A stretch of DNA of 64,000 nucleotides from Mobula hypostoma. Taxonomy: Eukaryota. The first letter of the stretch is position 1. Each line of letters opens with the position of its first letter. A model generated the notes under the pieces. That model made no database searches. It was not told where the DNA came from and saw only the letters and a list, made by a program, of their open reading frames with translations. The translations under genes and the position numbers were made by a program. Where the stretch lies: the NCBI RefSeq assembly GCF_963921235.1, contig NC_086097.1, positions 62,436,001 to 62,500,000 of the forward strand, read 5' to 3'. Positions 3,037 to 58,589 of this stretch are shown here, piece after piece.

Positions 3037-3128
3037 CTGATGAAGGGTCTTGGCCTGAAACGTCGACTGTTTATTCTCCTTCGTAGATGTTGCCTGACCT
3101 GCTGAGTTCCTCCAGTATTTTGTGTGTA
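3037..3128 (+). mobile_element. Penelope-like 3' terminal fragment with hammerhead core
   Basis: ctgatga-agggtcttggcct-gaaa-cgtc-gactg followed by the family tail (cctgacctgctgagttcctccag). The 5' strand of stem I is missing. Confidence 0.75.
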
Positions 3129-11490: not shown

Positions 11491-12510
11491 ATAGTCATCG
11501 TCATAGTCATAGTCATATTTTATTGATCCCGGGGGGAAATTGGTTTTCGTTATGGTTGCGCTATAAATAATTGAATAGTAATAAAACCATAAATAGTTAA
11601 ATAGTAATATGTAAATTATGCCAGTAAATTATGAAATAAGTCCAGGACCAGCCTATTGGCTCAGGGTGTCTGACCCTCCAAGGGAGGAGTTGTAAAGTTT
11701 GATGGCCCCAGGCAGGAATGACTTCCTATGACGCTTTGTTTTGCATCTCAGTGGAATGAGTCTCTGGCTGAATGTACTCCTGTGCCCAACCAGTACATTA
11801 TGTAGTGAATGGGAGGCGTTGTCCAAGATGGCACGCAACTTGGACAGCATCCTCTTTTCAAGCACAACTGTCAGAGAGTCCAGTTCCATCCCCACAACAT
11901 CACTGGCCTTACAAATGAGTTTGTTGATTCTGTTGGTGTCTGCCACCCTCAGCCTGCTGCCCCAGCACATGACAGCAAACATGATCGCACTGGCCATCAC
12001 AGACTCATAGAACATCCTCAGCATCGTCCGGCAGATGTTAAAGGACCTCAGTCTCCTCAGGAAATAGAGACAGCTCTGACCCTTCTTGTAAACAGCCTCA
12101 GGGTTCTTTGACCAGTCCAGTTTATTGTCAATTCGTATCCCCAGGTATTTGTAATCCTCCACCATGTCCACACTGACACCCTGGATGAAAACAGGGGTCA
12201 CTGGTACCTTAGCTCTCCTCAGGTCTACCACCAGCTCCTTAGTCTTTTTCACATTAAGCTGCAGATAATTCTGCTCACACTATGTGATAAAGTTTCCTAC
12301 CGTAGCCCTGTACTCAGCCTCATCTCCCTTGCTGATGCATCCAACTATGGCAGAGTCATCAGAAAACTTCTGAAGATGACAAGACTCTGTGCAGTAGTTG
12401 AAGTCCGAGGTGTAAATGGTGAAGAGAAAGGGAGACAAGACAGTCCCCTGTGGACCCCAGTGCTGCTGATCACTCTGTCGGACACACAGTGTTGCAAGCA
12501 CACGTACTGT
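11491..12510 (-). mobile_element. Young 5'-truncated Rex1/Babar LINE
   Basis: PQGTVLSPFLFTIYTSD, KFSDD, KTKELVVD, YKYLG...LYFLRRLRSF. (TATGAC)n tail at 11491-11517. Confidence 0.9.
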
Positions 12511-12659: not shown

Positions 12660-14710
12660 GATGACGAAACTTATCAACAGCTGCCTGAGGAGTGATTTAG
12701 ATCCATTCCAATTTGTCTACCATCACAGCAGGTGCCATTTTATTGGTTCTTCACTCAACCCTGGAACAACTGGACAATGAAGATGCTTACATCCGGATGC
12801 TATTCATTGACTACAGCTCAGCACCCAATACTATCATCTCCTCAAAACTGATCAATAAGTTTCAAGACCTTGGCCTCAATGCCACCTTGTGCAACTGGAT
12901 CCTCAATTTCCTCACTTGCAGACCCCAGTCTGTTCAGATTGATAACAACACCTTCTCTATAATTGTGATTGTGTAGCCAAGTTTCCATCAAACTCAATAT
13001 ATAAGTTTGCTGATGACACAACAATTGTAGGCCGTATCTCGCGTAATGATGAGTTTGAGTACAGAGAGGAAATTAAGAACCTGGTGGCATAGTGTGAAGA
13101 CAATAACCTATCCCTCAACGTCAGCAAGACGAAGGAATTGTTTGTTGACTTCAGAAGGAGTAGCGGACCGCACGACCCAATTTACATCGGTGGTGCGCAA
13201 GTGGAACAGGTCCAAAGCTTTAAGTTCCTCGGTGTCAATATCACAAATGACCTGACTAGGGCCAACCAAGCAGAGTCCACTGCCAAGAAGGCCTACCAGC
13301 GCCTTTACTTCCTGAGAAAGCTAAAGAAATTTGGCCTGTCCCCTAAAACTCTCACTAATTTTTATAGATGCACCATAGAAAGCATTCTTCTAGGGTGCAT
13401 CACAACCTGGTATGGAAGTTATCCTGTCCAAGACCGAAAGAAGCTGCAGAAGATCGTGAATACGGTGCAGCACATCACACAAAGCAATCTTCCATCCGTG
13501 GACTCACTTTACACCACACGCTGTCGGAGCAGTGCTGCCAGGATAATCAAGGACACGACCCACCCAGCCAACACACTTTTTGTCCCTCTTCCCTCTGGGA
13601 GAAGGTTCAGGAGCTTGAAGACTCGTACGGCCAGATTTGGGAACAGCTTCTTTCCAACTGTGATAAGACTGCTGAACAGATCCTGACCCGGATCTGGGCC
13701 GTACCATCCAAATATCCGGACCTGCCTCTCGGCTTTTTTGCACTACCCTACTTCCCATTTTTCTATTTTCTATTTATGAATTATAATTTAAATTTTTAAT
13801 ATTTACTATTTTAAACTATTTTAATATTTAATATTTGTAATCCAGGGAGTGTGAAGCGCAGAATCGAATATCGCTGTGATGATTGTACGTTCTAGTACCA
13901 ATTGTTTGGCGACAATAAAGTGTAAAGTATAATCACCTACAGCACAGGTACATCATAAGGCTATGTGCTTATCCTCCTGATCTATTCACTTTAACTTATG
14001 ACTGTTAGGCTAAGTACGGCTCCAATGCCATATTTAAGTTTACAGATGGCATCATTGTAGTTGCCCATATCAAAAGTTGTGACAAATCAGCATATAGGAG
14101 GGAGATTGAAATTCTGGCCGAACGAATGCCACAACAATCCCTGACTCAACGTTGGTAAGGCCAGGGTGTTGAATTTTGACTACGGGAGGAGGAAACCAGA
14201 GGTCTATAAGCCAGTCCTCATCAGGCAATTCGAGGTGGAGAGGGACAGCAACTTTAAGTTCCTTGCTGTTGTCATTTCAGAGGATTTGTCCTGGGTCCTG
14301 CACGTAAGTGCCATTACAATAAAGGCACGGCAATGCATCTTCTTTCTTAGAAGTTTGTGAAAATTCAGCATGTCATCTAAAACTTTGACAAACTATAGAT
14401 GTGTAATGAAGATTATACTGACTGGTTGCATCACAGTCTAGTATGGAACACTAGTACCCTTGAATCTAAAAACCTCCAAAAAGTAGTAAATACAGCCTAT
14501 TCCATCACATGTGAAGCCCTTCCCACTGTCACAGGAAAGCAGCATCCATCTCATCAAGGATCTCCATCATCCAGGTCATACTCTTTTTTTACTGCTGTCA
14601 TCAGGAAGGAGATACAGGAGTCTTAGGTCCCACACCACCAACTTCAGAAACAGTTATTACCCTTCAACCATCTGACTCTTGAACCAGAATGGATAACTTC
14701 ACTCACTGAA
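12660..14710 (+). mobile_element. Older Rex/Babar LINE fragment interrupted by a younger copy at 12964-13927
   Basis: [14 protein letters not shown] before the insert. RT sequence resumes at 13934 and includes FKFLAVVISEDLSW. Confidence 0.85.
12964..13927 (+). mobile_element. Younger 5'-truncated Rex/Babar LINE
   Basis: KFADDT and ORF 13138-13686 (FKFLGVNITNDL...RLYFLRKLKKF). aataaag tail. TSD tataat at 12958-12963 and 13928-13933. Confidence 0.9.
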
Positions 14711-14714
14711 GCAA

Positions 14715-15045
14715 ATCCACATCTTCTCCTCACCTGCCTATCACCTCTTCCTGGTACCCCTCCTCCTTCTCTTTCTCGCTGGTCTATAAACCTCTTCTAT
14801 CAGATTCTTTCCTCTGTCCTTTGCCTTTTCTATCTCCCAGCTTCTTACTTGTCACCTGTCCCCCATAAACCTGGCTTTACCTATCACCTCCCAGCTTGTC
14901 ATCCTTCCCCTCCCCACACTTTATTATTCTGACATCTCCTTTCCTTTCCAATCCTGATGAAAGATCTCAGCCCTAAACATCAACTGTTCATTAATTTCCA
15001 TTGATGCTGCATGACCAGCTGAGTTCCTCCAACATTTTGTTTGTG
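14715..15045 (+). mobile_element. Penelope-like 3' terminal fragment with degenerate hammerhead
   Basis: Pyrimidine-rich tract, cctgatgaaagatctcagccctaaacatc (GAAA mutated), then the family tail. Confidence 0.75.
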
Positions 15046-15217
15046 GTACTTTGAAAATATGTTTTACAGTCCTTGAGAATTGTATCACAGTGAATTGAGG
15101 TGGATTTTGTTGCAGTGGAGATACAGAGCTCTCTACAGAATCAATATTTTTCCATAATTCAGCAGCTGAGGAAAGAAGACAGGAGTTTTGAATAAATCAT
15201 AATTTGAGGTTGGGTAT

Positions 15218-19449: not shown

Positions 19450-19645
19450 CACACATGAAATGCTGGAAGAACTCAGCAGGTTAGGTAGTATCAATGGAAG
19501 AGTGAAAAACAGACAAGGTTTTTGGCTAAGACACTTCATCAGGACTGGGAAGAGCCGGAATAAGAAGGTGGGAGGAGTGGAAAGAACAGGACCAGATGAA
19601 TGGGAAGGTGGATTCATGGGTGAGGGACAATGAAGTGAGAAGCTG
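19450..19645 (-). mobile_element. Penelope-like 3' terminal fragment
   Basis: Reverse-strand family tail and a degenerate hammerhead (cagtcctgatgaagtgtcttagccaaaa). Confidence 0.7.
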
Positions 19646-19779: not shown

Positions 19780-20420
19780 TGTTCAATAGAACTCCTTAGG
19801 ACCCAACCAATTCATGATGCTTTTACCAACCTCATTAATAGTCTTATACATATTAGACATAGTCTGATAAAGCATCATCTCATAGTTATCAAGATTAAAC
19901 TCCATCTGCCATTTCTCAGGCCCTGCACCACCACATCAAAATCACCATGTACCTTAATTCTACCCTCCACACTATCAGCAACTCCATAATCTTCATGATA
20001 CCTACAAACTTACTGATCTTGTCTCGCATATCCACATCCAAAAACAACCATGTACAGTATATTAGAAACAGCATACATCCTTGTGGGACACCACTAGCCA
20101 AAGGTATCCAATCACAAACCTAAACCTCTATCATTACCCTCTGTCTCCTATTGCTTAGGCAGCTTTGGGTCCAATTTTCCAAGTTGGCTTGGATTACATA
20201 TGCCCCAAGCTTCTGAAGCCACCTCCTATGCGGGTCAATATTAAAAGCCTTACTAAAGTCCACGTAAATCACATCTACTACCCTGCCCTCATCAATATAC
20301 TTTGTTAGCTCTTCAATCAGATTGGTCAGATAAGATCTGCCCTTAACAACAACACACTGGTAGATCCCTGCTTTTCCAAGTGACAATTAATTCTCTCCCT
20401 GATGTGTTTTTTCCCCCCAG
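19780..20420 (-). mobile_element. Old CR1 RT fragment
   Basis: KGRSYLTNLIE..VDVIYVDFSKAF and SGVPQG. Confidence 0.85.
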
Positions 20421-21029
20421 ATAATTTCCCTTATATGGGTGAGTGCAAGGGAAAGTAGTTCTGAGCAACTGAGTGAAAATAGGCTACAGGACAAATATGT
20501 GGAGGAATGGAATTCATGGTATTGCTCTGAGAATTGGCTGAAAGGTCTCCTTCTATTTCAGAGGAAAATATAAAAATATCAAGAATGAGAAATATTTCAG
20601 CAGCTAAATTAGGACTTGAACTCGTGCCTCATGCTCTCAGCATTAACTATAGTGTGTGGTGTAATTTAACAACTGTGGCTTGGTAGCACACATTTGAGCA
20701 AAACCAGGATGTCGTAGAGGGTGATAATTAGAAAACCTGCTCGGAGGGCATTGCAATACCTTAGTGTGAAATGATGAAGGAGTTTAGTGGAAGGCAAACT
20801 TGTAGGAGGGACATGGACCAGATGTTTTATTTTGTAAGAAGGAAGTTATCTTTGTAATAGAAAGGCTAAATACTGGAATCATAAATTAAAGTTAAATATG
20901 CAACCAGAATTGCCAACAATCAGCCAAAGGGCAGGTAGCATTATGTATTCAGTATGAATGTTCAGCAGTTTAGTCTGCCCTAGGTCTTTACAAATAGCTT
21001 CCCCAGCAAAACATCTCCTTGAAAGGAAG

Positions 21030-21178
21030 AACAACAGGACAAACAATAGGAATTCTGTAGATGCTGGAAATTCAAGCAACTCTCATCAAAGTTGCTGGTG
21101 AACACAGCAGGTCAGGCAGCATCTCTTGCTAGAGATGCTGCCTGGCCTGCTGCGTTCACCAGCAACTTTGATGTGTGT
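21030..21178. mobile_element. Short palindromic Penelope-tail insertion
   Basis: 43-bp arms at 21084-21126 and 21131-21173 (2 mismatches). Perfect 14-bp TSD tccttgaaaggaag at 21016-21029 and 21179-21192. Confidence 0.85.
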
Positions 21179-21294
21179 TCCTTGAAAGGAAGGGCGATTT
21201 GAATGTCTGGAACTCTGGCTGTGTATAAAAACGTAGGCTACTGAGTCACACAAGGACTCTACAAAGGTCTTGGGAGTGGCGGTTTGGATTTCCA

Positions 21295-21564
21295 TTCAAG
21301 GATAAAGATTGTTTCATGTCATTTCCAGCACAAAATATAAAGAAGAACAAAATAATTGTTACTCTGGATCTGATGCAACACAATAGAATAAAGAACATAA
21401 TAATAAAAAATACAGATACATAATATAGTTTATATACATAGGTTGATTGTATACACATAAAATGAGGCTAGGCACAGGATTCCCTATACGTAAGTTAACT
21501 TTGACAGAAATGATAAAGTAGAGGCGGGGGGTGGTTGGGGGCATTGATCAGTCCTACTGCTTGG
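21295..21564 (-). mobile_element. Rex/Babar-type 3' end
   Basis: Reverse-strand ccaagcagtaggactgatcaa ORF end, 3'UTR and a short-repeat tail. Confidence 0.65.
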
Positions 21565-21709
21565 TTAAAGGGGTTAACATATGAGGCACATTTGGCAACT
21601 TTAGGTCTGTAAACACAAAATAATCTGCAGATGCTGTAAAAGATCAAAGCAACACTTCCAGTACGCTGGATGAACTCAACAGGTTGGGCAGCATCAGTCA
21701 GAAACCATG

Positions 21710-21745
21710 AGTCGACGTTTCAGGCCGGAACCCTTCGTCAGGACT
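21710..21745 (-). ncRNA. Minimal type I hammerhead ribozyme with intact core (Penelope-associated)
   Basis: Minus RNA AGUC-CUGACGA-AGGGUUCCGGCCU-GAAA-CG-UC-GACU: stem I AGUC/GACU, CUGANGA and GAAA boxes, GUC triplet, palindromic ACGU in place of stem III. Confidence 0.75.
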
Positions 21746-22987
21746 GAAGAATGAAAGATGGGGAAGGATTTGAAGAATGCTTGTAGCGTCAGTTGATAGA
21801 TCAGTAATTTGAAAGACAAAGGGGTGGGGGAGAGGAAGCATTGACGTCATAACCCTGAAAACAATGGGTGGTAGAAGAAGGAGGCGGAACGATGAGGTAG
21901 CTGGGGGAGGGGGCAGAGTGAAATTAGGATAGAAGAAGGTGGGTGGGAGGGAATTACCGGAAGTTGGAGAATTCTATTTTCATACCAAGGGGCTGGAGAC
22001 TACCTAGACAGTATATGAGGTGTTGCTCCTCCAACCTGAGTTTAGCCTCATCATGGCAGTAGAGGAGGCCATGTATGGACAAATCTGAATGGGAATGTGA
22101 AGCAGAGTTGAAGTGGGTGTCCACCGGGAGATCCTGTCTGTTGTGGTGGACAGAGCGGAGGTGCTTGACGAAGCGGTCCCCCAATCTGCGTCGGGTTTCA
22201 CTGATGTAGAGGAGGCTGCACCGGGAGCACCGGATACAATAGATGACCCCAACAGACTCACAAGTGAAGTATTGTCTCACCTGGAAGGACTGTTTGGGGC
22301 CCTGAATGGTTGCAAGAGATGAGGTGTAGGGACAGGTGTGGCACTTACGCTTACAGGGATAAGTGCCGGGTGGGAGATCAGTGGGGATGGACATGTGGAT
22401 AAGGGAGTCACGGAGGGACCGATCTCTGCGGAAAGCGGAGAGGGGTGGAGAACGAAAGATGTGCTTAGTGGTGGGGTGAATCTGTTGGGGTCATCTATTG
22501 CATCCGGTGCTCCCGGTGCGGCCTCCTCTACATCGGTGAAACCCGATGCAGATTGGGAGACCGCTTTGTCGAGCACCTCCGCCCCTTCCGCCAAAACAGA
22601 CAGGATCTCCCAGTAGCCACCCACTTCAACTCTGCTTCCCATTCCCATTCAGATATGTCCATACATGGTCTCCTTTACTGCCATGATGAGGCTAAACTCA
22701 GGTTGGAGGAGCAACACCTCATATACTGTCCAGGTAGTCTCCAGCCCCTTGGTATGAACATAGAATTCTCCAACTTCCGGTAATTCTCTCCCCCCCCCCC
22801 CCATCCCTATTTCACTCTGCCCCCTCCTCCAGCTCCCTCATGGTTCCACCTCCTTCTTCTACCACCCATTGTCTTCAGCGCTATGATGTCAATGCTTCCC
22901 CTCCCCCACCGCTTTGTCTTTCAAATTACTGGTCTATCAACTGACGCTATAAGCATTCTTCAAATCCTTCCCCATCTTTCATTCTTC

Positions 22988-23023
22988 AGTCCTGACGAAG
23001 GGTTCCGGCCCGAAACGTGGACT
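22988..23023 (+). ncRNA. Minimal hammerhead ribozyme copy with cleavage triplet mutated to GUG
   Basis: AGUC-CUGACGA-AGGGUUCCGGCCC-GAAA-CG-UG-GACU. Confidence 0.65.
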
Positions 23024-24484
23024 CATCGTTTCTGACTGATGTTGCCCGACCTGCTCAGTTCATCCAACTTTAGGTCTGTACTCACTGGAATTTAGAAGAA
23101 TGCAGGGGGATCTCATTGAAACCTACCAAATGTTGAAAGGACGAGATAGGGTGGATATGGAGAGGGTATTTCCTGTGGTGGTGGTATCCAGAACAAGAGA
23201 GCACAGCTTCAAAATTGAGGGGCAACCTTTTAGAACAGAGGTAAGGAGAAATTTTTTTAGCCAGAGAGTGGCGAATCTGTGGAATGCTTTGCCACAGACT
23301 GCAGGCGAGGCCAAATCTGTGGGTATATTTAAGACGGAAGTTGATAGTTTCCTGATCGGTCAGAGCATCAAAGGTTATGGCGAGAAGGCAGGTGGCATTG
23401 AGTGGGATCCAGGATCAGCCATGATGGAATGTCGGAACAGGATTGATGGGCGGAATGGCCTAGTTCTCATCCTGTGTCTTATGGTCTTGTGTAGAATGGA
23501 CAGATACATGATACTGTCCTCTCCCAAGTTCAGTCCATCTCATTGTAATGTTATGTCTCCTTCATAAACCACAAAGCAAGCTTTGATTCATTTTGGAGAG
23601 CATCATTTAAATACTCAGTTATTCTCATTTATTGCTTTTGAGTGTACAGAACCTGGAACATCAGTAGAATTCCCAACAGTACAAGCAAAATGACAGCTAG
23701 TGCTTCTGCCACCTGACCTCAGATGTTATCAACGTGAAACTTGCACATTTTTCCTGCACCTGTGTAAGTTTGTTAATTAATGAGACATTAATTACAGATG
23801 CAACAATAAAGTAGTATCAAGAAAAATTTAAAAAATATTTATCTGCATTTACCTTTTCAATGAAGATCAGCAATTCCAATCAATACTTATATCAACCATC
23901 TTAGCATAAAACTGAGGGCTGAATGACTCAGAACTTTTGCAGTGCACTGCTGGACTTGGTACTGAGTCCAGTAGTAGAGCAGTACATTACTTGAACAAAT
24001 GTTTAACTTCCATCTTGTCTCTGGCCTTCATGTTTCAATGTACTCTCCTGGAAGTCAGAAATAAGCCACCTGCCAGCAGGTCATTGCCTGTGGATCAGAC
24101 AACAGAAGGTAACCAACAGATTTATGGCCCTTTCCATTACCCTTTTCAATTAGTTTTATATATCCACTGCATTTTTGTAATTTGTATACAAGGACCCCTA
24201 AATCTCTTAGGAATCTGCGTCACTTACATTCTTTAATTTTAGTAATGGATAATTCTATCCCAATGGATTGGCTCACACTTATCTTTGTGAAATCTATCAG
24301 CTTTTGTTTCATAGAAATGAAGTTCTCTAACATATTATTCATAAAAATATGAGTAAATGGGTCTGCAGCATGGATCTGTGTGGGGCTTACTTGACAATTC
24401 CTTCCAAAGAGTGCATTTACAATTTCCCAACTTTCTGTTGCCTACCATTCATCCAGTTTCTGAACTAAACAAGTAACACGCCTT

Positions 24485-25102
24485 CTTTTGATAAACACCT
24501 GTGCTCCATCTGCTATGGGAATCTGGAACTCTCAGTTGCCAGCTACTTTAATTCTCCCCTCCTTCCCCAATTCCTATACTGACATGTCTATCCTCAGCCT
24601 TTTTCAGTGCTGGGTTAAGGTAAAATGCTGAACACTGAATTCTCCATTTTCAGGTAAGTTGCACCCTCTCGGTTCCTTTTTGTTCTCCTCCTAATCTGCC
24701 CAGCTCCCACAATATCCACTCCAGCTCCCTATCACTCTGTTTCTTTCTCTTCCTCCACCTGCTCCATCTGCCCATTGCCCACACACACTCCTTGCACTCA
24801 ATTTCACTCATTCCCCTCCACCCCCCCCACTGTTCCCATCTGTCCACCCCACCTTCTTCTCCTAACAGATACATCATCTGCCTATCCACCCCTCCTCACC
24901 TGGATCCACTGATGGATTTCTGGCTCCTAATTCACTTCTCCTTTAACTTTTTGTACTGGCCACCTCAATTCTCTCATTCAGACCAGGTGAAGGGTCTCAA
25001 TCTGAAACAGCGAATGTTCATTTTCTTTCCATAGATAATGCCTGACCAGCTGAATTTTGTTTGTTGCTTCAGAATCTGGCATCTGTGTTCTCTTGTGTTT
25101 CC
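24485..25102 (+). mobile_element. Older Penelope-like 3' fragment
   Basis: Decayed KHLCSI..VASYFNS coding, pyrimidine tract, degenerate hammerhead at ~24980-25012, family tail. Confidence 0.75.
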
Positions 25103-30214: not shown

Positions 30215-32480
30215 ACAGTGAAGATGGCAGCAGCGACTAACAGTGATGTCCTGCAGACAGTTCACGAAACTACTTCTTATCCTTCTTCTATTAAATATGC
30301 GTCCATTTCTAAACAATGTATGATTGCAGCCTGTCATTTACATTTTGATAACTTGCTCTTGGGCCTGCAGACTGATCTGGAGCTTTTGCTGTCTCTGAGG
30401 GAATTCAGCCAGGGCCGGATTAAGCTAGTGCGGAGCCTGTAGCATATGTTACACAGGGGCCCTAAATTTTAAAAAATGCACATAAGTATTAAAACATAAA
30501 TTTTTTACTTGCAAAGTAAAGTAATTCATTTTTTTCATTTGCTATACAGCCAGATAATACGACAAATGTCTGACACTTCAGTACTAGTATTACTTACAGG
30601 TAGGTATCAATTTCAAATGTCAGAAGTAACAAAATTTAAAAGTTAGATTTTCTAGATTTAGCATGAGCAAATTTGTTGATGATACTGGAAATATCTATTT
30701 CACGCAGAAGTTCATGTTCAATGCTCATTAGAGTGAGATTGTTCAATCTGTTTTGACCCATGGTGCTCCTTAGTTCATTTTTAATCCTTTTCAGTTTTGA
30801 AAATGAGGAATCATGAACTGGGAAGCATAAAGCTGTTGAGTCGCACATCCCTTGTCGCAGGCTCACGGCGGCGCCACTGGAGGGTGCGGCGTAACAGCGC
30901 ATGATGCAGCGGCTTGGGAGCATGGGAGATAGCACAAAGGTCACCACGACACAGCAAGGAGCCAACACACGCCTGCACACACATACTGTACCATGCAGCA
31001 TACAGCTCCCCTAACATGAAAACAACAGCGTTGCCAGATTGTTGTTGTTGTGGCGTGGATGAAATCACAGAGCGTTGCATTACCGCTAGGTACAAGGCAG
31101 TTTCTTTATACAACAAAACAAGGTTGCAGCAGGCAGAGACCCCTGGCAGAACAGGTCTAACCTCCTTGTGATTGAGGCTTAACATTTATTTGCTAAACAC
31201 AAAGGACAGTTCATAGTTACAAGTATAGACAATTCTTTGAAGTTTTCACGTCTTTTGATTAAATTCATTCTACCGGCGCCAGTGCGCCTAAGCTGGCGCC
31301 CAAGTTAAAATTGATAATACATTATTTGGTACGCTACGTGCTAACACAGAGGACAATTCATATTCAAAAAGCATAGATATGGTGTCTTCGCAACTACCTG
31401 TAAATTTAGCATTCTTGTCTCAGAGGTACCAGAGATGCATTATTACAAATGAAACTGGGTTCACAGCTTTTAGGAATTGCATTGTTATGAACTCAATCCA
31501 CAGTACTTTGTCAAAGAGCAGAAGACTGATGGCTGAAGTCATTTATTTAAGTGTAAATGAATCGTCTACCCAAAACTCACTCTAACAGTCGTGAGAATAT
31601 GGTGAGATGGCGATATGGCGATTTCACCAGACTGCAGCTTGCAAGCGTTTAGTGCAGGCGGGGCCCTCAAAAATGCGGGGCCCGTAGCATATGCTACTTT
31701 TGCTACTAGGTTAATCCGGCCCTGAATTCAGCGTGGTTGAGAATGGACTGTGCAGCCTCATACCACGGCTTACACCCTTGATCGGCTCTGTTACTCGGCG
31801 ATCTTGCTGACTGAAGCATCAAGCAAGATTGGAATCGATGAGGACAAGAGCTGAAGCCAAGCAGGTGTTCAACACTGCCTGCCTGTGTTTGACTGGGCTC
31901 CCCATCGGTCTCACACACACCGCCATCTGAGAAAGGTGCAGGAGTTCTGGGACTTGGGCAAAGATTGATCGGCACAGCTTTTGGATTGGACTCATTTTTA
32001 GAGGACTCTGCAGTGCATGTTATATGTGTATCTGGTTACTGGAAATGTCGACTATACCTCTTCCTAAAGATGTTGTCTGGTCTGCTGCGTTCACCAGCAA
32101 TTTTTATGTGTTTTGTTTGAAATTCCAGCATCTGCAGATTTCCTCGTGTTTGACTCTTTTTTTATTGTTACTTTGTGTGACTTTAATCAGGGCACTTTGA
32201 CGTGGACTGGCTCTGTGACCCGCTGTTGACACCGCACTAAACTGAACATTCCTAGACTGTTTGATGTTTAATAATCTTTGTGTTATTCATTCATTTATTG
32301 CTGTTTGCACATTTTGTTCTTTTTTCTCATGTGTTTTGTGTTTTATATTTTCTTTGAATGGGTTCCATGGTGCTTTTTTGCTTCATGGCTGCCTGCAGGA
32401 AGATGAATTTCAGGGTTGTATACTGCAGCCATACTTTGATAATAAATGTACTTTGATCTTTGATCTTTTGATCTTTGAAC
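30215..32480 (+). mobile_element. Non-coding retroelement with AAGATGGC head and Rex-type 3' tail, split by hAT (30410-31724) and a Penelope tail (~32041-32152)
   Basis: Starts gtgaagatggcagc. Ends aataaatgtac plus (tttgatc)n. Sequence is continuous across the hAT TSD. Confidence 0.55.
30410..31724 (-). mobile_element. Young non-autonomous hAT (Tip100-like) transposon, 1315 bp
   Basis: TIR cagggccggattaa(g/c)ctagt. Perfect 8-bp TSD aattcagc at 30402-30409 and 31725-31732. hAT dimerisation-domain remnant SFSKLKRIKNELRSTMGQNRLNNLTLMSIE at 30636-30810. Confidence 0.95.
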
Positions 32481-35264: not shown

Positions 35265-36045
35265 GTAGACTATAGGAACAGAATTAGGACAATTGGCCGA
35301 TTAAGTTTGTTCTGCCATCCAATCATGGTTGATCAATTATCCATATGAGCCCTGACCTTCTCCCTATAAATTTTGATGCCCTGACCTTTCAAGAATGTTT
35401 TAAATATATTCAATGACTTGACCTGCACGGCCATCTGTGGCAATAATTCCACAGATTCACTACCTTCTGGCTAAAGAAATTTCTCCTCATCTCTATTCTA
35501 AATGGATATCACTCTATTCTGAGGCTGTGTCCTCTGGTCCTAGACTCACCCACTATAGGAAACATTCTCTCCACATCCACTCTTTCCAGGCCTTTCAAAT
35601 ATTTGATAGGTTTCAATGAGATCCCTCTCATTCTTCTAAACTCCGGTGAGTATAGGCCCAGGACCATCAAATGCTCCTCACACGTTAACCTTTCATTTCT
35701 GGAAACATGAACTTCTTCTGGATCCTCTCTAATACCAGAACATCGTTTCTTAAGCAAGGGGACCAAACCTACTCATAATACTGCGAATGCAGTCCGCCCA
35801 GTGCCTTACAAAGCATCAGCATTACATTCATGCTTTTATGCACTAGACTCTCTAAATGAATACTAACATTGCATTTGCCTTCCTCACCACCAACTCAACC
35901 TGCAAGTTAACCTTCGGGAAATCCTGCATGAGGACTCCAAAGTCCCTTTACACCTCTGACTTTTGAACTTTCTCCCCGGTTAGAAAATCATCTGCATCTT
36001 TATTCCTTACGCCAAAGTGGTCACCCATAAACTTCACTATATTGG
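35265..36045 (-). mobile_element. CR1 3' fragment
   Basis: LGLYSPEFRRMRG..ERMFPIVGESRTRGHSL and CR1 3'UTR. Confidence 0.85.
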
Positions 36046-37420: not shown

Positions 37421-37691
37421 CGAATGAATAAAGGAAGCCAGAAGAGCAGACAGACAGAGTGCAATTATGATGTGAGCAATCGAATGGTTAAAATAAACAC
37501 TGATTTACATGCCTACTATATTTGTCTGACATCCGTGTGGTCTGTCATTTTTGTACGTATTCTTCTAATTATTAATGAATGACTCTAGTTTCAAATTTCC
37601 AAGAAAAATGTGTCCTCCAGGCTGGTTAATAGGTCATGGTTGAAGTTGGTATTGACTACATCTTTTCCACAATATACTAATATTTTAATGG

Positions 37692-37887
37692 ACAAGAGAA
37701 AATCTGCAGATGCTGGAAATCCAAGCAACACACACAAAATGCTGGAGAAACTCAGCAGGCCAGGCAGCATCAATGGAAAAAAGTACAGTTGACATTTCAG
37801 GCTGAAGGGTTTCGGCCCAAAACGTCAACTGTACTTTTTCCCATCAATGCTGCCTGGCCTGCTGAGTTCCTCCAGCATTTCATGTGC
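37692..37887. mobile_element. Short palindromic Penelope-tail insertion folded inside the hammerhead
   Basis: ~70-bp arms at 37737-37806 and 37811-37880. 13-bp TSD aatattttaatgg (37679-37691) / aatactttaatgg (37888-37900). Confidence 0.85.
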
Positions 37888-39164
37888 AATACTTTAATGG
37901 AGTATGTTTACTATCAGTATACAGCAAAGATTGATGTTCCTCTGTTTCTCCAGAAATGTCTCAATCTCCAAGCTTTTCAGAATGCCCAGGGGTGCAAGCA
38001 ACTTGGTTCAATTGGCAAAACTCATTAAACTCTTTGAAGACTATAGGATTATAAAGCCATTTGGCAGAAATATAACTTTTCTTCATTAAAATTAATTGTA
38101 AATGAGATATTCCATTCAGTGCATACAGTAAGCATCAGGCATGTGTCTGCATTTTTAAATTCAAAATTTAACTTTTTCCAACCCCATATTTCCAAGTCTA
38201 CAATATAGGAGGTTCAAACATTGCAAGTTCATGTCACATTCATGCTTCAAGTCAATGAAGATAATTTCGGAAAAGAATATTAATTCAGTGCCTTCACTAC
38301 ATTCCATTCTCAAATCTATCTTTTTTCATCCATAAGATTAAAGGACTTACTCCTCTTTTACTTCTTCATCCCACTGCATATATTTCAAGGAAAATTTAGA
38401 ATGTCTGGCAAATGATTTATAATGAAAGATATTGAATTTTGAAATGTATCTGTTTTAGGAATGAATTTGGTCCCCAAGCCAATAAGAATATTCATCTTGA
38501 TTGTCTTTGAAAAAGATGCATATTTCTGTTTAGAAGCTGGTATTCCTAAATACTTAAATAGAGTACAGCAAATATTTTGCGTAGATAATTTAATAAATAT
38601 CATTTACATAAGATTACAAATGAGCAACAGACATTGGACTTGCCAGTGCTGTTCAAATGCTACAGATGAATGGAGGTTTAAAAATAATAGGAACATATAG
38701 CACAAAGTCACCTTTTTGCATGTCTTGAAACGTTTCTTTTTCAGATGCCCCATCAACATGCAAAATTCATCTTGAGAGAGTTTCAATTTTACTGGAGAGA
38801 AAATATATTTTTTTACTTATAACAACCTGTTTTGATTAATCCCATTTCTCCCAAAACCCCACTAGTTAAAGGATAAACACTGTCTTCTGTTTCTCCCATT
38901 GGATTTTTGACCTCTGATGATTTTAAATAAAACCTGCGTAGTCTATGGAGGTTAGGGTTACAACATTTCTCAGTTTCCTAGCCACTGGATAATACCCAAT
39001 GTCTGTGACTGTCCTCTGCCATACCTCAGTTTCTGCTTGTTGCCATAATAGGCAAGTCAAAAGTTGAAAGTTCATAGGAAATTTATTATCAAATTGTGTA
39101 TATGTTACCATATACTATCTTGAAATTTATATTCTTGAAGGCATTTACAGGAAAAGTAGAAATA

Positions 39165-45009: not shown

Positions 45010-45209
45010 TGTGGTTATATCACGTGTAATGATGTGCCAGTACATGACTGGACAAAGCACTGAGTATGCGCTGGATTGCCAGAATGTTCCAGCACAGGGC
45101 TGGGTTAAGAAGTGTTTGTTTATTACTGTAAATAAAAGTTCTCTAATTCTTCCAGAATATGATTCTTTACTGTTAACCTACGGTACGTTTAAACAGAAGT
45201 AACATAACA
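45010..45209 (+). repeat. Gypsy 5' LTR
   Basis: TG..CA, 200 bp, about 22 substitutions versus the 3' LTR (counted by eye). Confidence 0.95.
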
Positions 45210-45309
45210 TGGTGTCAGAAGTGGTTCTGGAAGAATAATATGGGAGAATCGAGAATCGAAGATAATTGGAAAAAAAGAGAAGAAAAAAGTTTGAACTGTA
45301 ATTGGTAAA

Positions 45310-48300
45310 ATGGAAGGTTTACAACCTCCACCAAAACTTCAGCTGACTGGCAATGTAGCTGAGAATCGGAGGATATTCAAGCAACAGTTTGAACTGTACT
45401 TATCAGCAATTGATTATGAAGAGAAATCAGAAAAAAAACAAAGCTGCGCTTTTGCTCCATGTAATTGGGAATGACACAGTAGAGGTATATCATAATTTTG
45501 TCTTTGAAGATGGAGATAATTTCAATTTAAAGTCGATAATGGACAGATTTGAAGTATTTTGTATACCTAAGTGTAATTTAACGTATGAGCGAAATAAATT
45601 CTTCACGTGCGCAGAGAGCCACTGAAACAATTGATCAATATGTTACTGAGTTAAGAAAGCATGGTAGAACATGTGAGTTTGGATTGCTCATGGACTCTCT
45701 CATTAAAGATAGACTTGTTTGTGACATTCGAGACATTGCTTTGAGAGAAAGGCTGTTGAGAGAGCAAGATTTAAATTTTGAAAAAGCTTTGGTGATTTGC
45801 AAAGCTTCTGAGACCATGACGTTGCGGGCTGAAGAGCTTTTTGTCGAAAACTGCAATGTAAACGCTGTAAAAAAGTGCGAATACATCAAGAAATATAATA
45901 ATACGTCAACGAAACTGATAGAGAGCACAAAGGCATTGGAAGGAAAAAAGCCATGTGATCGCTGTGTGTGGGAACATCGTCCAAATCAGTGTCCTGCATA
46001 TGGCCAAAAAGGCAATGGCTGCGGTAAGATTAATCATTTTTAACATTGTTGTAAAAGTAGAAAGAAAGAAGGAAAATAAAATGAAACAAGTAAATGCTGT
46101 GCTTGAAGATGAACGCGAGGAACTGTATATAGATGTGCTTTGTGAAAATAACAAAGTCAGAACTAGTCCATTGTTTTCCAAAGTAAGACTATTCCACTGC
46201 AAGTGAATCAAGACAATATTCTGTTTAAACTTGATAATGGAGTGCAAGTAAATGTTCTTGCAGAATCTGAGTTTAATGCTTTAAATCCAAGCCCGAAGTT
46301 ACATCAGACAAATATAAAAGTGACTGGGTATTCAGGTGCAGACATTCCAGTTAAAGGAACATGCGTGGCAAAGGTATCACACAAAAATATCGTGTATACG
46401 CTTTCATTTGTGGTCGTGCCAAAAAATATAGTCAGTTCTGTGTTTATCTGCCTGTGAAATACTTAATTTGGTGAACAGAGTTTTAGTCCTGGATAGCGAC
46501 ACAGAGTCAGAATACAGTGACTTGATGAAAGAGTATGAAGACTTGTTTAACGGGCTTGGTTGTCTTCCAGGAGAGCACTCGATTAAAATTGACAATACAG
46601 TGCAACCCGTAATACATCCATGCAGTGAAGTACCTTTTGCATTATGTCATCAACTGAAAACGTCATCAACTGAAGTTAGACAGAAGGGAAAGGCTGGGAG
46701 TCATAAATAAAATTGATGAACCAACTGAATGAGTCAGTTCCCTTGTCATTGTTGATAAGAAAAATCAAAAACTGAGGATTTGTTTAGATCCAAGAGACTT
46801 GAATCGAGCCATTAATAGAGGGCATTTCAAATTGCCTACTCGTGAAGAAATTATGTCACAGTTTGCTAATACAAAGTATTTTAGTAAATTAGATGCATCC
46901 TCTGGATTCTGGCAACTCAAATTAGATGAACCAAGTTCAAAATTGTGTACCTTTAATACTCCTTTTGCCAGATACTGTTTTCTTAGGCTCCCTTTTGGAA
47001 TTGCATCAGCTCCTGAAGTGTACCATAAAACCATTCACATGTTATATGAGCACATTGAGGGTGTAGATACATCCATGGATGAGATTATTATTTGGGGATC
47101 GACTAAACAAGAGCATGATGCCAGGCTCAGACAAGTCTTTGAGGCAACACGCAAGGCAAACCTGAAACTGAATAAAGACAAATGTCAACTAGGAGTGACT
47201 GAACTTACATTTGTGGGTGATATCATCAGCAATGAGGGTATGCGTCCTGATCCATTGAAGGTTTCTGCTATTGAGAACATGCCAAGACCGCAATGTAAAA
47301 AGGATGTTCAGAGGTTTATGGGAATGGCCAACTACATGGGAAAGTTTATACCCGATCTCTCGGAACAGCTCGCTCCATTGAGGCAGCTAACAGAAAAGAG
47401 AAATGAATGGAGCTGGAACCATGGACAGGAGAAGGCATGGCAAAATCTCAAGAAAGTGCTCACTAAAGAACCTGTGTTGAAATTCTGTGATGCTCAGAAA
47501 CCCATCAAAATCTCATGTAATGCATCTCAAGCAGGCTTAGGGGCAGTATTACTGCAAAAACATGATCAGGATTGGCTACCTGTGGCATATGCATCTCATT
47601 CATTATCTGATCCAGAAACAGGGTATGCCCAAATTGAAAGAGAATTGCTCAGCATTATGTTTGCTTGTGAGAGATTTCATCAGTTTGTGTCAGGGCAATC
47701 TATTGATGTTGAAACTGACCATAAGCCTTTGATTGTATTGTTTATCAAACCTTTAAGTGATTGTCCTTTGCGAATTCAGCGAATGATGATCAAATTGCAG
47801 AGATATGCGTCGAATGTGTCATACACACTTGGAAAATTCATGTACACGGCTGACACACTTTCCAGAGCTGTGGATCCAACAACAAAAGACAGTCAGAGGG
47901 ACATTATTGATGTTCAGGTATCTATTGATATGGTCATTGAAACTGTACCTGTTGCTCCCAAAAAGTTGGAACTGCTGTGTCTTGAGACAGAGAAGGACAA
48001 AATTCTCAATCAGGTAGTACAAGTGGTGTTGGATGGATGGCCAGATAATAGGCATGACTGTACCACAATAGTACAAGATTATTGGAACCATAGATTAGAA
48101 CTGCCTGTTGTGGATGGGATATTGTACAAAGGTAGTAGAATTGTTATACCTAAAAGTCTCCGTAAAGAAATTCTTGATAAAAATCATGAAGGCCACCTAG
48201 GCATTGAAAAATGTAAGAGAAGGGTACGGGAAGTGATATTTTGGCCCAGGATGAATCAAGAGATTGCAGGATTGGTGCCTTCTTGTATCCTGAAGTGTGT

Positions 48301-49002
48301 TGTCTGGGTAGATCGAGTGCAGAAAATGTAATTACATGCATGAAATCGTTTTGTTCAAGACATGGTGTACTTGATGAAGTTTTCACAGACAATGGTCCAC
48401 AATTCAGTAGTGAATGCATGAACCATTTTGTTCCTGAATAGGGCTTTGTTCATACAACATCTAGTCCATTTTTCCCTCAGTCTAATGGATTAGTTGAGAG
48501 ATCGGTGGGAATTGTCAAGAAACTGATGCACAAAGCAAAAGATAGTGGACGTGATTTTTATAAAGCCTTGTTGGCCTTCCGCAGCATGCCACTTGAATGT
48601 GGATTTTCACCTGCTCAGCTCTTGATGGGACGTCGTTTGAGGTCTAATCTGCCAATGGATGAGAGCCTTCTGAGAACAGAGGAAGGTGAACAAGTGAAAA
48701 GATGGAAAGATGAACACAAAGCAAAGCAGAAAATATACTTTGATAGATGTTCTCGTCCATTACCTGAATTACATCAGGGAGGTGAAGTGAGGATACAAGA
48801 CAAAATGATCACATGGACACAGAAAGCTACAGCACTTGAAGATGTACAACCCAGATCATACACAGTCCAAACAGAGGAGGGAGCGGTGGTAAGGAGAAAT
48901 CGCAAAAACCTCAAGAAAGAGCCAACTTCAGAGATTCAGTTAACTGATGCAGACGAGACAAAACATGTAAATAATAACAAGGAAACACAAGATCTGTGTT
49001 AG
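45310..49002 (+). pseudogene. Gypsy gag-pol, broken by frameshifts and stops (longest ORF 46799-48331)
   Basis: Domain order PR-RT-RH-IN across track ORFs 45585, 46203, 46468, 46799, 48241 and 48505. Confidence 0.92.
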
Positions 49003-49122
49003 AAGGTCTTAGAAGGTATACTTGTATTCGTAAACTCACAGAGAGACTGATAGAGACTTGTTGAATTATGTATTTGCTTTGGTTAACTTTGTTAATTGTT
49101 TTTCTTTTTAAGGAAAGGAAGA

Positions 49123-49322
49123 TGTGGTGATATCACATGCAATGATGTGCCAGTACATGATTGGACAGAGCACTGAGCTTGTGCGGGATTGCCAGAATGT
49201 TCCAGCACATGGCTGGGCAAAGATGTGTTTGTTTATTACTGTAAATAAAAGTGATCTAATTCTTCTAGAATATGACTCTTTACTGTTAATCCATGGTATG
49301 TTTAAATAGAAGTAACATAACA
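49123..49322 (+). repeat. Gypsy 3' LTR
   Basis: Follows the PPT and is followed by TSD gtgat (49323-49327). Confidence 0.95.
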
Positions 49323-53299: not shown

Positions 53300-56200
53300 T
53301 TTCTTCGGTAGTTTGAACGGGGCACCACTGCGCAAGCGCGTGAAAGTCGGCCCGTAAGACAGCGGGAGAGTTTAAAAAGCAAGCAGATTAACGGAGCAGG
53401 CGACGTAGTAGTGGGCAAAGGAGTAGTGGGAAACAGAGTAGGAAGGCTTTGGCTCGAGAGGCTTCGGCGAGCAGAGGCTGAGGACGAGCTTGCTCCCAGT
53501 GAGGTAAGGCCGGGTAAGTTCCTTTAATTACTCTAATTAACTTAGGAGTAGGTAATGGAGGCAGCAGTTAGGGCAGTCCAGTGCTCCATTTGCAGTATGT
53601 GGGAAGTCAAGGCGAGCACAATTGTCCCTGATGACTACACCTGTAAAAGGTGCATCCAGCTGCAGCTCCTGACAAACTGAGTTAGGGAACTGGAGCTGGA
53701 GCTGGATGAATTTTGGATCATTCGTGAGGCAGAGGCAGAAATAAACAGGAGTTACAGGGTGATAGTCAACCCCAAAAGTCAGGAGGCAGGTAGCTGGGTG
53801 ACTGTCAGGAGAGGGAAGGGGAATAGACAGAATGAGCAGAGCATCCCTGTGGCCATTCCCATCAATAATAAGTATTTCATTTTGGATGCTGTTGATGGGG
53901 ACGACCTACCAGGGACAACATGCGGTGGTTGTATCTCTGGCACCGAGACTGGAAGGGAAGGAGGGAGAAGAGGAGAGCAGTAGTGATAGGGGATTCAATA
54001 GTTAGGGGGACAGATAAGAGGTTTTGTGGAAGAGATCGAGAATCCCAGATGGTCTGTTGCCTCCCTGGTGCCAGGGTTTGCGATATCTCGGATTGAGTTC
54101 TCAGTATTCTCCAGAGGGAGGGTGAGCAGCCGGATGTCGTTGTCCATGTAGGGACCAATGACATGGATAGGAAGAAGGACGAGGTCCTGCAAAGAGAATT
54201 TAGGGAGTTAGGTGCAAAGTTGAAGGACAGGACCTCCAGGGTTGCAATCTCAGGATTGCTACCAGTGCCGCATGCTGGTGAGGCTAGAAATAGGAAGATA
54301 ATGCAGCTAAATACGTGACTAAGGAGTTGGTGCAGGAGGGAGGGCGGGCTTCATGATTCTGGACAGTTGGATCTTGTTCCAAGGAAGATGGAACCTGTTC
54401 CGACAGGATGGGTTGCACCTGAACTGGAGGAAGACTTACATCCCTGCGGGAAGGTTTGCCAGTGCTGCTCTGGGGGGTTTAAACTAGATTTGCAGGGGGA
54501 GGGTAACCAGAGTGTTAGAGCTGATAGTGAGGTGGAGGAGGATAAAGGTCATGTGAGAACTGCAAGTATAGTGCATGGAGTAAAGCCAGATCTAACATAT
54601 AAAGAGGCTTTGAGGAAAGAGAAGCAGAATAATGGGTGTAAAGGTAGTAAGGTAGAAGGGCTAAAGTGCGTGTACCTCAATGCAAGAAGCATCAGGAACA
54701 AAGGTGATGAACTGAGAGCTTGGATACATACATGGAATTATGACGTAGTGGCCATTACAGAGACTTGGCTGGCACCAGGGCAGGAATGGATTCTCAATAT
54801 TCCTGGATTTCAGTGCTTTAAAAGGGATAGAGAGGGCGGAAAAAGGGGAAGAGGGGTGGCATTACTGGTCAGGGATACTATTACAGCTACAGAAAGTGTG
54901 GGTAATGTAGCAGGATCCTCCTTTGTGTCAGTATGGGTGGAAGTCAGGAACAGGAAGGGAGCAGTTACTCTACTGGGGGTATTCTATAGGCCCCCGGTAG
55001 CAGCAGAGATACAGAGGAGCAGATTGGGAGGCAGATTTTGGAAAGGTGCAAAAATAACAGGGTTGTTATCATGGGTGATTTTAACTTCCCTAATATTGAT
55101 TGGCACCTGATTAGTTCCAAGGGTTTAGACGGGGCAGAGTTTGTTAAGTGTGTCCAGGACAGATTCCTGTTACAGTATGTTGACAGGCGGACTGGGGGAA
55201 TGCCATACTAGATCTAATATAAGGTAACAAACCAGGTCAGGTCACAGATCCCTCAGTGGGTGAGCATCTGGGGAACAGTGACCACCGCTCCCTGGCCTTT
55301 AGCATTATCATGGAAAAGGATAGAATCAGAGAGGACAGGAAAATTTCTAATTAGGGAAGGGCAAATTATGAGGCTATAAGGCTAGAATTTGCGGGTGTGA
55401 ATTGGGATGATGTTTTTGTAGGGAAATGTACTATGGACATGTGGCTGATGTTTAGGGATAAATTTGCCCAGGTGAGGAAGATAAAGAATTGTAGGGTGAA
55501 GGAACCATGGGTTACGAGTGAGGTGGAAAATCTAGTCAGGTGGAAGAAAGCAGCATACATAAGGTTTAGGAAGCAAGGATCAGACGGGTCTATTGAGGAA
55601 TATAGGGTAGCAAGAAAGGAGCTTAAGAAGGGGCTGAGGAGAGCAAGAAGGGGGCATGAGAAGGCCTTGGTGAGTAGGGTAAAGGAAAACCCCAAAGCAT
55701 TCTTCAATTATGTGAAGAACAAAAGGATGACAGGAGTGACGATTGGACCGATTAGAGATAAAGATGGGAAGATGTGCCTGGAGGCTGTGGAAGTGAGGGA
55801 GGTCCTCAATGAATACTTCTCTTTGGTATTCACCGATGAGAGGGAACTTGATGATGGTGAGGACAATATGAGTGAGGTTGATGTTCTGGAGCATGTTGAT
55901 ATTAAGGGAGAGGAGGTGTTGGAGTTGCTAAAATACATTAGGATGGATAAGTCTCCGGGACCTGACGGAATATTCCCCAGTCTGCTCCATGATACGAGCG
56001 AAGAGATTGCTAAGCCTCTGGCTAGGATCTTTATGTCCTCATTTTCCACGGGAATGGTAGCGGAGGATTGGAGGGAGGCAAATGTTGTCCCTTTGTTCAA
56101 ATAAGGTAGCAGGGATAGTTTGGGTAATTATAGACCAGTGAGCCTTACATCTGTGGTGGGAAAGCTGTTGGAAAAGATTCTTAGGGATAGGATCTATGGG

Positions 56201-57487
56201 CATTTAGAGAATCATGGTCTGATCAGGGACAATCAGCATGGCTTTGTGAAGGGCAGATCGTGTCTAACAAGGCTGATAGAGTTCTTTGAAGAGGTGACCA
56301 GGCATATAGATGAGGGTAGTGTAGTGGATGTGATCTACATGGATTTTAGTAAGGCATTTGACAAGGATCCACATGGTAAGCTTATTCAGAAAGTCAGAAG
56401 GCATGGGATCCAGGGTAGTTTGGCCAGGTGGATTCAGAATTGGCTTGCCTGCAGAAAGCAGAGGGTCGTGGTGGAGGGAGTACATTCAGATTGGAGGGTT
56501 GTGACTAGTGGTGTCCCACAAGGATCAGTTTTGGGACCTCTACTTTTCCTGATTTTTATTAACAACCTGGACGTGGGGGTAGAAGGGTGGGTTGGCAAGT
56601 TTGCAGATGATACAAAGGTTGGTGGTGTTGTAGACAGTGTAGAGGATTGTCAAAGATTGCAGAGTGACATTGATAAGGTGCAGAAGTGGGCTAAGTGGCA
56701 GATGGAGTTCAACCCGGAGAAGTGTGAGGTGGTACACATTGGAAGGACAAACTCCAAGGCAGAGTACAAAGTAAATGGCAGGATACTTGATAGTGTGGAG
56801 GAGCAGAGGGATCTGGGGGTACATGTCCACAGATCCCTGAAAGTTGCCTCACACGTAGATAGGGTTGTTAAGAAAGCTTATGGGGTGTTAGCTTTCATCA
56901 GTCGAGGAATAGAGTTTAAGAGTCGCGGAGTAATGATGCAGCTCTATAAAACTCTGGTTAAGCCAAACTTGGAGTACTGTGTCCAGTTCTGGTCGGCTCA
57001 CTATAGGAAGGATGTGGAAGCATTGGAAAGGGTACAGAGGAGATTTACCAGGATGCTGCCTGGTTTAGAGAGTATGCATTATGATCAGAGATTAGGGGAG
57101 CTAGGGCTTTACTCTTTGGAGAGAAGGAGGATGAGAGGAGACATGATAGAGGTATACAAGATATTAAGAGGAATAGATAGAGTGGACAGCCAGCACCTCT
57201 TCCCCAGGGCACCACTGCTCAATACAAGAGGACATGGCTTTAAGGTAATGGGTGGGAAGTTCAAGGGGGATATTAGAGGAAGGTTTTTTACTCAGAGAGT
57301 GGCTGGTGCGTGGAATGCTCTGCCTGAGTCAGTGGTGGAAGCAGATAGACTAGTGAAATTTAAGAGACCACTAGACAGGTATATGGAGAAAGTTAAGGTG
57401 GGAGGGTTATATGGGAGGCAGGGTTTAAGGGTTGGCACAACATTGTGGGCCGAAGGGCCTGTACTGTGCTGTACTGTTCTATGTTCT
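53300..57487 (+). mobile_element. Near full-length CR1 LINE (CpG-rich 5'UTR, ORF1 zinc finger plus SGNH esterase, ORF2 APE-RT), inserted in an older CR1 3' fragment (53130-53283 plus 57488-57735)
   Basis: ORF1 from ATG 53555 (CSIC..CKRC, VIGDSIVRG, VHVGTND). ORF2 YLNARSI..AITETWL, NYRPVSLTS, DFSKAFD, SGVPQGSVLGP, KFADDT. ttctatgttct tail. Confidence 0.97.
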
Positions 57488-58589
57488 AAAACTTGGGGGG
57501 CACAGATTTCGGATGAGTGGGAAAAGATTAAAAAGGGGCCAGAGTGGGGGAGCATATGGAATTATCTGCCAGAAGACGTCGTTGAGGCAGGCACAATAGT
57601 ATCCTACGAGAAACCCTTAGATTGAGACATGGAAGGATGGAGTTCAGAGGGATATGGACTGAACGCAGGAAACCGGAACAGGTGGGCACCATATGTGAAA
57701 TGTACTCACTGGGCTACATCCCTGCTTGGGCTCTATAATCCACAAATGCAGACAGTTACATCATTACAGTTTATTTGCAAATTAAAGTCAACCCTAATGA
57801 ATGGGTGATTCATTCTGGAATGATAGAATGGGAAATTTGTATCATTTTAGTACAATATTAGTATGAATCACGATGAATTCTCACCTTTACTATTGCTAAG
57901 TGAACAATACAAGGCTATCTAGCATCCAAAATTGGAAGAATCACTAAATAGTACCAGAATAAGGATACATTTCATTAAATTAAGTGCATAGGAAGAGAGG
58001 TAGGGTTAGTAAATGGTGTACAGAGAAGTTCCCAATGGGTGGAGAACCAAACTTTTATTGTGGAATTTGGAGAAACATATTCACTTCCTGAATCTAAAGG
58101 AAGCCAGACTGTCTTTCTTAAGAAGTGAACATTTACCTGCTTGCTTTCCTGTCCCAGAAGAAGACTCCAACTACACTGATACGTCACACGGGCACTATTA
58201 CTTCCCACACTGGTCTCAAGTATGAAGTGTTGCATGGGCCCTGCTTCATTAGAGCTGTTTTGCACATTTCATCTAAGCCCAAGGTAATTTGGACTCATTT
58301 CTTTTTCGCCTGAATTTTTAGATTGCGATAGGTCAGAACTGGGATATAACAGAATCGACAGCCCTTCTTTCCTATCTTATTTGTCCTGCATCTGTAGGAC
58401 TCGAAGCAGGAATGGTATTTTGGATTAGACAGGATGGAGCCCAAGTGCTTATCACCATCCTGCAGCAATGATACAGCATTAAAGAAAAGTTTTTTGAAGA
58501 TACCACCAGGAATAGTGAATATTACTTTTGAAGTATGATTAGCTAGGCTGGGCGAGGCTGGCTTTCATTTCAACAATGGGAACTGAAGA

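Follow-up and report, generated by a model that had tools for sequence, protein, structure and literature searches.

Endonuclease-bearing (EN+) Penelope-like elements (PLEs) are described as inserting in a characteristic inverted form. The typical Penelope structure has an adjacent inverted repeat and a one-sided 31-bp tail, and is enclosed by a target-site duplication (TSD) (PMC3846280); Pen2a_Av of Adineta vaga is an example (PMC3846280), and a scheme of such insertions has been published (PMC8557442). The purified protein of Poseidon of Anolis carolinensis (PAc) cleaves and extends both DNA strands, has two internal initiation sites for reverse transcription, which set the tail, and is predicted to form a dimer (PMC11167929); no inverted products are reported from that in vitro work. 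Metazoan PLEs also carry pairs of minimal hammerhead motifs 100-700 bp apart on opposite strands, with no cleavage reported for a single minimal motif (PMC4209133), and hammerhead cleavage is unnecessary for insertion in vitro (PMC11167929). A CX2-5CxxC linker between reverse transcriptase (RT) and endonuclease is given for Neptune and Nematis, not for Penelope or Poseidon (PMC8557442).

Here, we analyse an inverted PLE insertion in a 64,000-nucleotide stretch of a ray genome (Mobula hypostoma), referred to as the window. Like the Pen2a_Av-type insertions, the ray locus is arranged head to head, with a 5'-truncated inverted neighbour, a tail at one end, and a TSD around the whole unit. Unlike them, it has both copies truncated inside the endonuclease region, a TSD of 13-16 bp rather than 8-10 bp, and an end asymmetry of 55 nt rather than 30-40 nt. 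Cleavage and extension of both strands, two internal starts, and a hammerhead within the terminal repeat would be common ground with PAc, whereas the linker motif, absent from Penelope and Poseidon, points to a different clade. The hammerheads have the minimal core, the extra base before stem II and the palindromic helix III region reported for metazoan PLEs (PMC4209133), but the ray pair lies about 1.25 kb apart and one member is mutated at its cleavage triplet. The locus may also be set beside inversions of L1. In L1 twin priming, the two primers copy separate, non-overlapping stretches of a single RNA, and only one element 3' end results. One event, primers from two nicked strands, and an inversion inside one TSD would be shared with that process; the ray locus differs in that one 590-nt segment has been copied two times and a 3' end lies on either outer side.

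The insertion is dead and illustrates a known pattern cleanly; it is ordinary, because its layout is the usual published way in which such elements insert. A preliminary description of this DNA correctly stated that PLEs often contain inverted and truncated segments, in agreement with the typical structure as given in PMC3846280 and PMC8557442, and the rarity that it implied is contradicted by the same sources. By itself the locus matters little. The class of inverted PLE insertions matters modestly, because the steps of inverted insertion have yet to be proven (PMC11167929, PMC8557442) and ray genomes seem rich enough in TSD-bounded fold-backs to test those steps statistically. Literature searches, judged in part by title, found no paper on ray PLE fold-backs.

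Anatomy of the insertion and its target site

The insertion consists of two inverted arms with 214 nt between them (Table 1). Both copies are 5'-truncated and lie head to head with their 3' ends outward; arm coordinates and reading frames thus confirm two GIY-YIG copies joined at their truncated 5' ends, as previously proposed. The asymmetry of the ends is also as first described, the left arm extending 55 nt past the end of the right. Over 591 alignment columns the arms differ by 48 substitutions and 4 gap columns (8.1%). The substitutions comprise 32 transitions and 16 transversions, 12 changes are of CpG type, and the divergence without CpG-type changes is 6.1%.

The unit is bounded by two identical 16-mers that occur exactly twice in the window, even when 2 mismatches are allowed; none of 100 shuffled sequences contained two matches. 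When the insert is removed, the flanks give a gap-free alignment over the insertion point with a second LINE copy of the window, the match starting at 21572, and the 16-mer is therefore a duplicated target. Its first 2 nt in the right copy, which are also the last 2 nt of the right arm, match the element as well, as possibly does 1 nt at the other junction, so that the duplication proper spans 13-16 bp. Arms that differ by 8.1% can be reconciled with a TSD that is still perfect (P 0.26). The host sequence is the C-terminus of an endonuclease-RT LINE, 64-67% identical to the C-termini of proteins with both domains, and we take this LINE to be CR1-like. The perfect duplication inside a CR1 given in the preliminary description thus stands as a unique 16-bp TSD in a LINE, CR1 being a presumed name.

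Table 1. Features of the main insertion and of other PLE copies in the window
Feature	Position	Strand	Basis or remark
Host LINE, 5' piece including left TSD copy	21572..21611	+	Empty-site match to 35274-35690
Left TSD copy, 16 bp (13-16 with junction microhomology)	21596..21611	+	
3' extension of left copy only: about 40 nt of standard tail and about 15 nt absent from right end	21612..21666	-	
Left arm: end of GIY-YIG ORF (stop 21954-21956), 3' UTR/pLTR, hammerhead motif	21667..22261	-	
Minimal hammerhead motif, core and GUC triplet intact	21710..21745	-	Motif scan
Spacer: further 5' sequence of left copy, RT-endonuclease linker with CX3CxxC	22262..22475	-	Continuous ORF 21954-22490 and alignment
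Right arm, more truncated: GIY-YIG C-terminus (stop 22781-22783), 3' UTR, no tail	22476..23066	+	
Minimal hammerhead motif, GUG at cleavage triplet (23017-23019), predicted inactive	22988..23023	+	
Right TSD copy	23065..23080	+	
Host LINE, 3' remainder (ORF2 C-terminus and 3' end)	23081..23490	+	
Miniature PLE fold-back, 149 nt, perfect 14-bp TSD	21016-21192		
Miniature PLE fold-back, 14-bp TSD with one mismatch, turn within hammerhead region	37679-37901		
Lone decayed PLE 3' ends	3037-3127, 14944-15054, 19450-19552, 24988-25056, 32042-32152		

Identity of the element

The left copy retains an open frame of 178 aa and the right copy one of 104 aa, with Pfam matches to GIY-YIG at E values of 0.072 and 3e-4, respectively, both under the gathering score. 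Four proteins from the annotation of stingray and devil-ray genomes share 74-82% identity with the left frame, and three of them (P0021, P0024, P0028) have RT-like sequence upstream; an 889-aa protein with RT and GIY-YIG domains is 43% identical to the frame. The cysteine pair and histidines are conserved with the ray proteins and with the 889-aa protein. A telomerase-like RT upstream in the same ORF, as expected of an EN+ PLE, is lacking in this truncated insert; in the homologues the upstream sequence is RT-like. The locus has the features of an EN+ PLE, namely GIY-YIG, a hammerhead in the terminal repeat, and an inverted truncated copy with one-sided tail and TSD, and the CX3CxxC encoded by the spacer ORF fits the CX2-5CxxC linker. 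From these predicted features the element is identified as an endonuclease-bearing PLE, putatively Neptune-type by its linker motif; Neptune is preferred over Nematis on the presumed taxonomic range of the two. No related DNA was found in metagenome or viral contigs. Pieces of the family also lie inside annotated ray gene models that bear host-gene names (P0012, P0016, P0018, P0021, P0022, P0029, P0032), and reflect either mis-annotation or exonisation.

Divergence of the arms and comparison with relatives

Contigs of four public runs (X1, X4, X9 and X10) were compared with positions 20300-22540. Their unique flanks differ from the reference by 1.5% in X4, 7.9% in X9 and 9.1% in X10, and X1 has no difference over 778 nt. 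Forty of the 199 rows of differences were examined, and 16 of these are in the left arm. At 13 of these 16 listed sites the right arm has the majority letter of the family and the left letter is private, and two are uninformative; at the remaining one (21797) both arms share a letter carried by at most 5% of the family depth. Up to 0.62 such shared sites are expected by chance (P 0.46, a loose bound), and this rare letter is weak evidence.

These comparisons give no sign that the arms belong to different subfamilies, which the preliminary description had named as a refutation. Over 100 codons the arms differ by 8 synonymous and 12 nonsynonymous changes, which fits neutral decay (P 0.11-0.17). 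The arms look like two copies close to the majority sequence of a single subfamily, neutrally decayed in place, and the unit is now dead. A retrotransposed editing signature was considered and rejected: G is the family letter at the four listed, polarised A/G differences (21801, 22147, 22166, 22202), and the left arm has therefore lost G. Several private changes of the left copy, within 21898-22388, are C-to-A in the element sense (21978, 22120, 22311, 22320, 22388), a possible strand bias.

One X4 contig connects unique flank with the TSD and with 24 nt of the left tail, against 31 nt set for a bridge, and suggests that this sister species shares the main insertion. A contig of X10 departs from the reference at 21570, immediately before the host LINE starts, so that this species may lack the LINE too. 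No empty site for the main insertion was seen in the contigs of the four runs, which cover its left flank. An insertion age near or below the 8-9% splits would fit the arm distance, and closely related rays could be scored for presence or absence of the insertion as a marker.

Other fold-backs in the window

Two further PLE fold-backs are present in the window, and in all three examined the TSD measures 14-16 bp and the left end is the longer one. Of 300 random boundary pairs, none gave a 14-bp match with up to one mismatch, and the five lone decayed 3' ends, within their rough bounds, have no TSD of at least 14 bp. Measured from a shared anchor, the long ends are at +55 in the main insertion and at +66 and +50 in the small fold-backs, and the short ends at 0 in the main insertion and at +17 and +13 in the small ones, whose short arms end where lone copies also end. 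At the fold-back 21016-21192, one contig of X9 and one of X10 both lack 163 nt, the length of the insert and one TSD copy, and there the site is genuinely empty of the complete inverted unit. The same fold-back folds as a hairpin with a z score of -12.6, and Rfam gave four sub-threshold matches to miRNA models on its palindrome (21077-21180).

Origin of the inverted arrangement

Both arms very probably derive from one integration event. They share one TSD, their two outward 3' ends abut it, they belong to the same subfamily, and the window has two other fold-backs bounded by TSDs; the case rests mostly on the enclosing TSD, and arm divergence alone is no proof. Indeed, the arm distance by itself cannot separate one event from two, because both arms are near-majority copies. 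It is nevertheless highly improbable that two insertions of the same subfamily occurred independently, the second hitting precisely the 5' junction left by the first, since a single TSD encloses both arms with no second duplication at the junction, the arrangement recurs in all three fold-backs examined in the window, and two relatives lack one of these in its entirety. Scarcely credible is an assembly artefact, such as a fold-back read or a mis-join. No contig bridges the inversion junction among 32 listed pieces from a total of more than 217,000, the compared stretch including 65 nt of the right arm; however, 48 sites and 4 gap columns separate the arms, each of which has CpG decay of its own, the TSD is unique, the host LINE is gap-free across the site, and the sister-species contig enters the tail from unique flank, if for less than the length set for a bridge.

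The single event of the preliminary description is therefore upheld by the one TSD and the outward 3' ends. Of the two routes that it offered, priming from both nicked strands is the mechanism that we favour, and is probably correct. An endonuclease-bearing Neptune-type PLE would have integrated once into the older LINE, its GIY-YIG enzyme nicking both strands 13-16 nt apart and each free 3' end priming reverse transcription near the 3' end of the element. The top strand would have primed at the long, tailed start and the bottom strand at a shorter start with 2-nt complementarity. Both cDNAs would have stopped early, at about 865 and 590 nt, and been joined end to end without inserted bases, with fill-in creating the TSD. 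As these 590 nt are represented in both cDNAs, the template would have to be a pair of RNA copies from one subfamily, or a tandem RNA from it. The two TSD copies each abut an element 3' end with the polarity of primed cDNA, as double priming predicts, and the activities of the Anolis protein are consistent with it. A 7-nt inverted match near the junction depends on family letters and is not claimed as a guide to joining.

Against double priming, the right arm ends 13-17 nt before the short end of the two small fold-backs. This end is displaced from the usual start and coincides with 2 nt that match the target, which keeps alive a single event with one primer, in which the first cDNA folds back, or the polymerase jumps, and copies itself; the 214-nt loop would then be the spacer, and the second target end would be joined at the 2-nt match. 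A DNA copy stopping at such a match would also give the off-site end, one rare letter is common to both arms, and a related self-priming has been proposed from palindromes at inverted junctions (PMC3846280). We nonetheless regard this route as rather unlikely here, as there is no palindrome at the turn, with at most about 2 nt of possible microhomology, and the small fold-backs end at the positions of lone copies, which is not expected of a random stop. Under double priming, the off-site right end could mark a third start, chosen by microhomology. The locus is a single data point on PLE inversion and no proof. As a tentative generalisation, fold-back insertion by two RNAs primed on two nicked strands may be a routine in vivo pathway of the Neptune-type element in rays; if so, its many dated fold-backs (three in 64 kb) would form a natural data set deciding between double priming and self-priming.

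Hammerhead motifs and predicted transcripts

Hammerheads were sought with a descriptor built from PMC4209133 and general core rules. One minimal motif was found in each arm, on opposite strands, so that any one transcript would contain a single sense hammerhead rather than one at each end. The GUG of the right-hand motif should not cut, a non-G base being required at that position of the cleavage triplet. Rfam gave no hammerhead match at either motif, and the isolated fragments fold no better than shuffled sequences (z 0.17 and -0.57). Read-through RNA is predicted to form a near-continuous duplex of -1160.6 kcal/mol, with longest Watson-Crick runs of 60 and 55 bp, in which the lone sense hammerhead of each strand would itself be paired. 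The functional reading envisaged earlier, a long dsRNA hairpin with a hammerhead near each end, is not supported: a weak search yielded no transcript of the locus, and the predicted duplex would have one sense motif per strand, buried, with GUG at the right.

Coding content and other retroelements of the window

No host-gene exon was found in a scan of 122 ORFs from the 133 that reach 78 aa, in which short exons would be missed. The other 11, in or next to the element, were left out, and the window holds 468 ORFs of at least 50 aa. Six of the scanned ORFs gave Pfam matches, all to kinds of domain known from retroelements. Two diverging ORFs (11656-12279 on the minus strand and 13093-13683 on the plus strand) match ALKBH8_N, a domain that occurs at the C-terminus of some LINEs, and are possibly another head-to-head retroelement pair. 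An LTR-retrotransposon-type pol ORF (RT, RNase H and integrase zinc finger; 46733-48328) lies within 45010-49322 and is flanked by 200-bp direct repeats with 89% identity. Positions 54319-57622 hold a long LINE remnant with endonuclease and RT, including an open RT frame of 506 aa.
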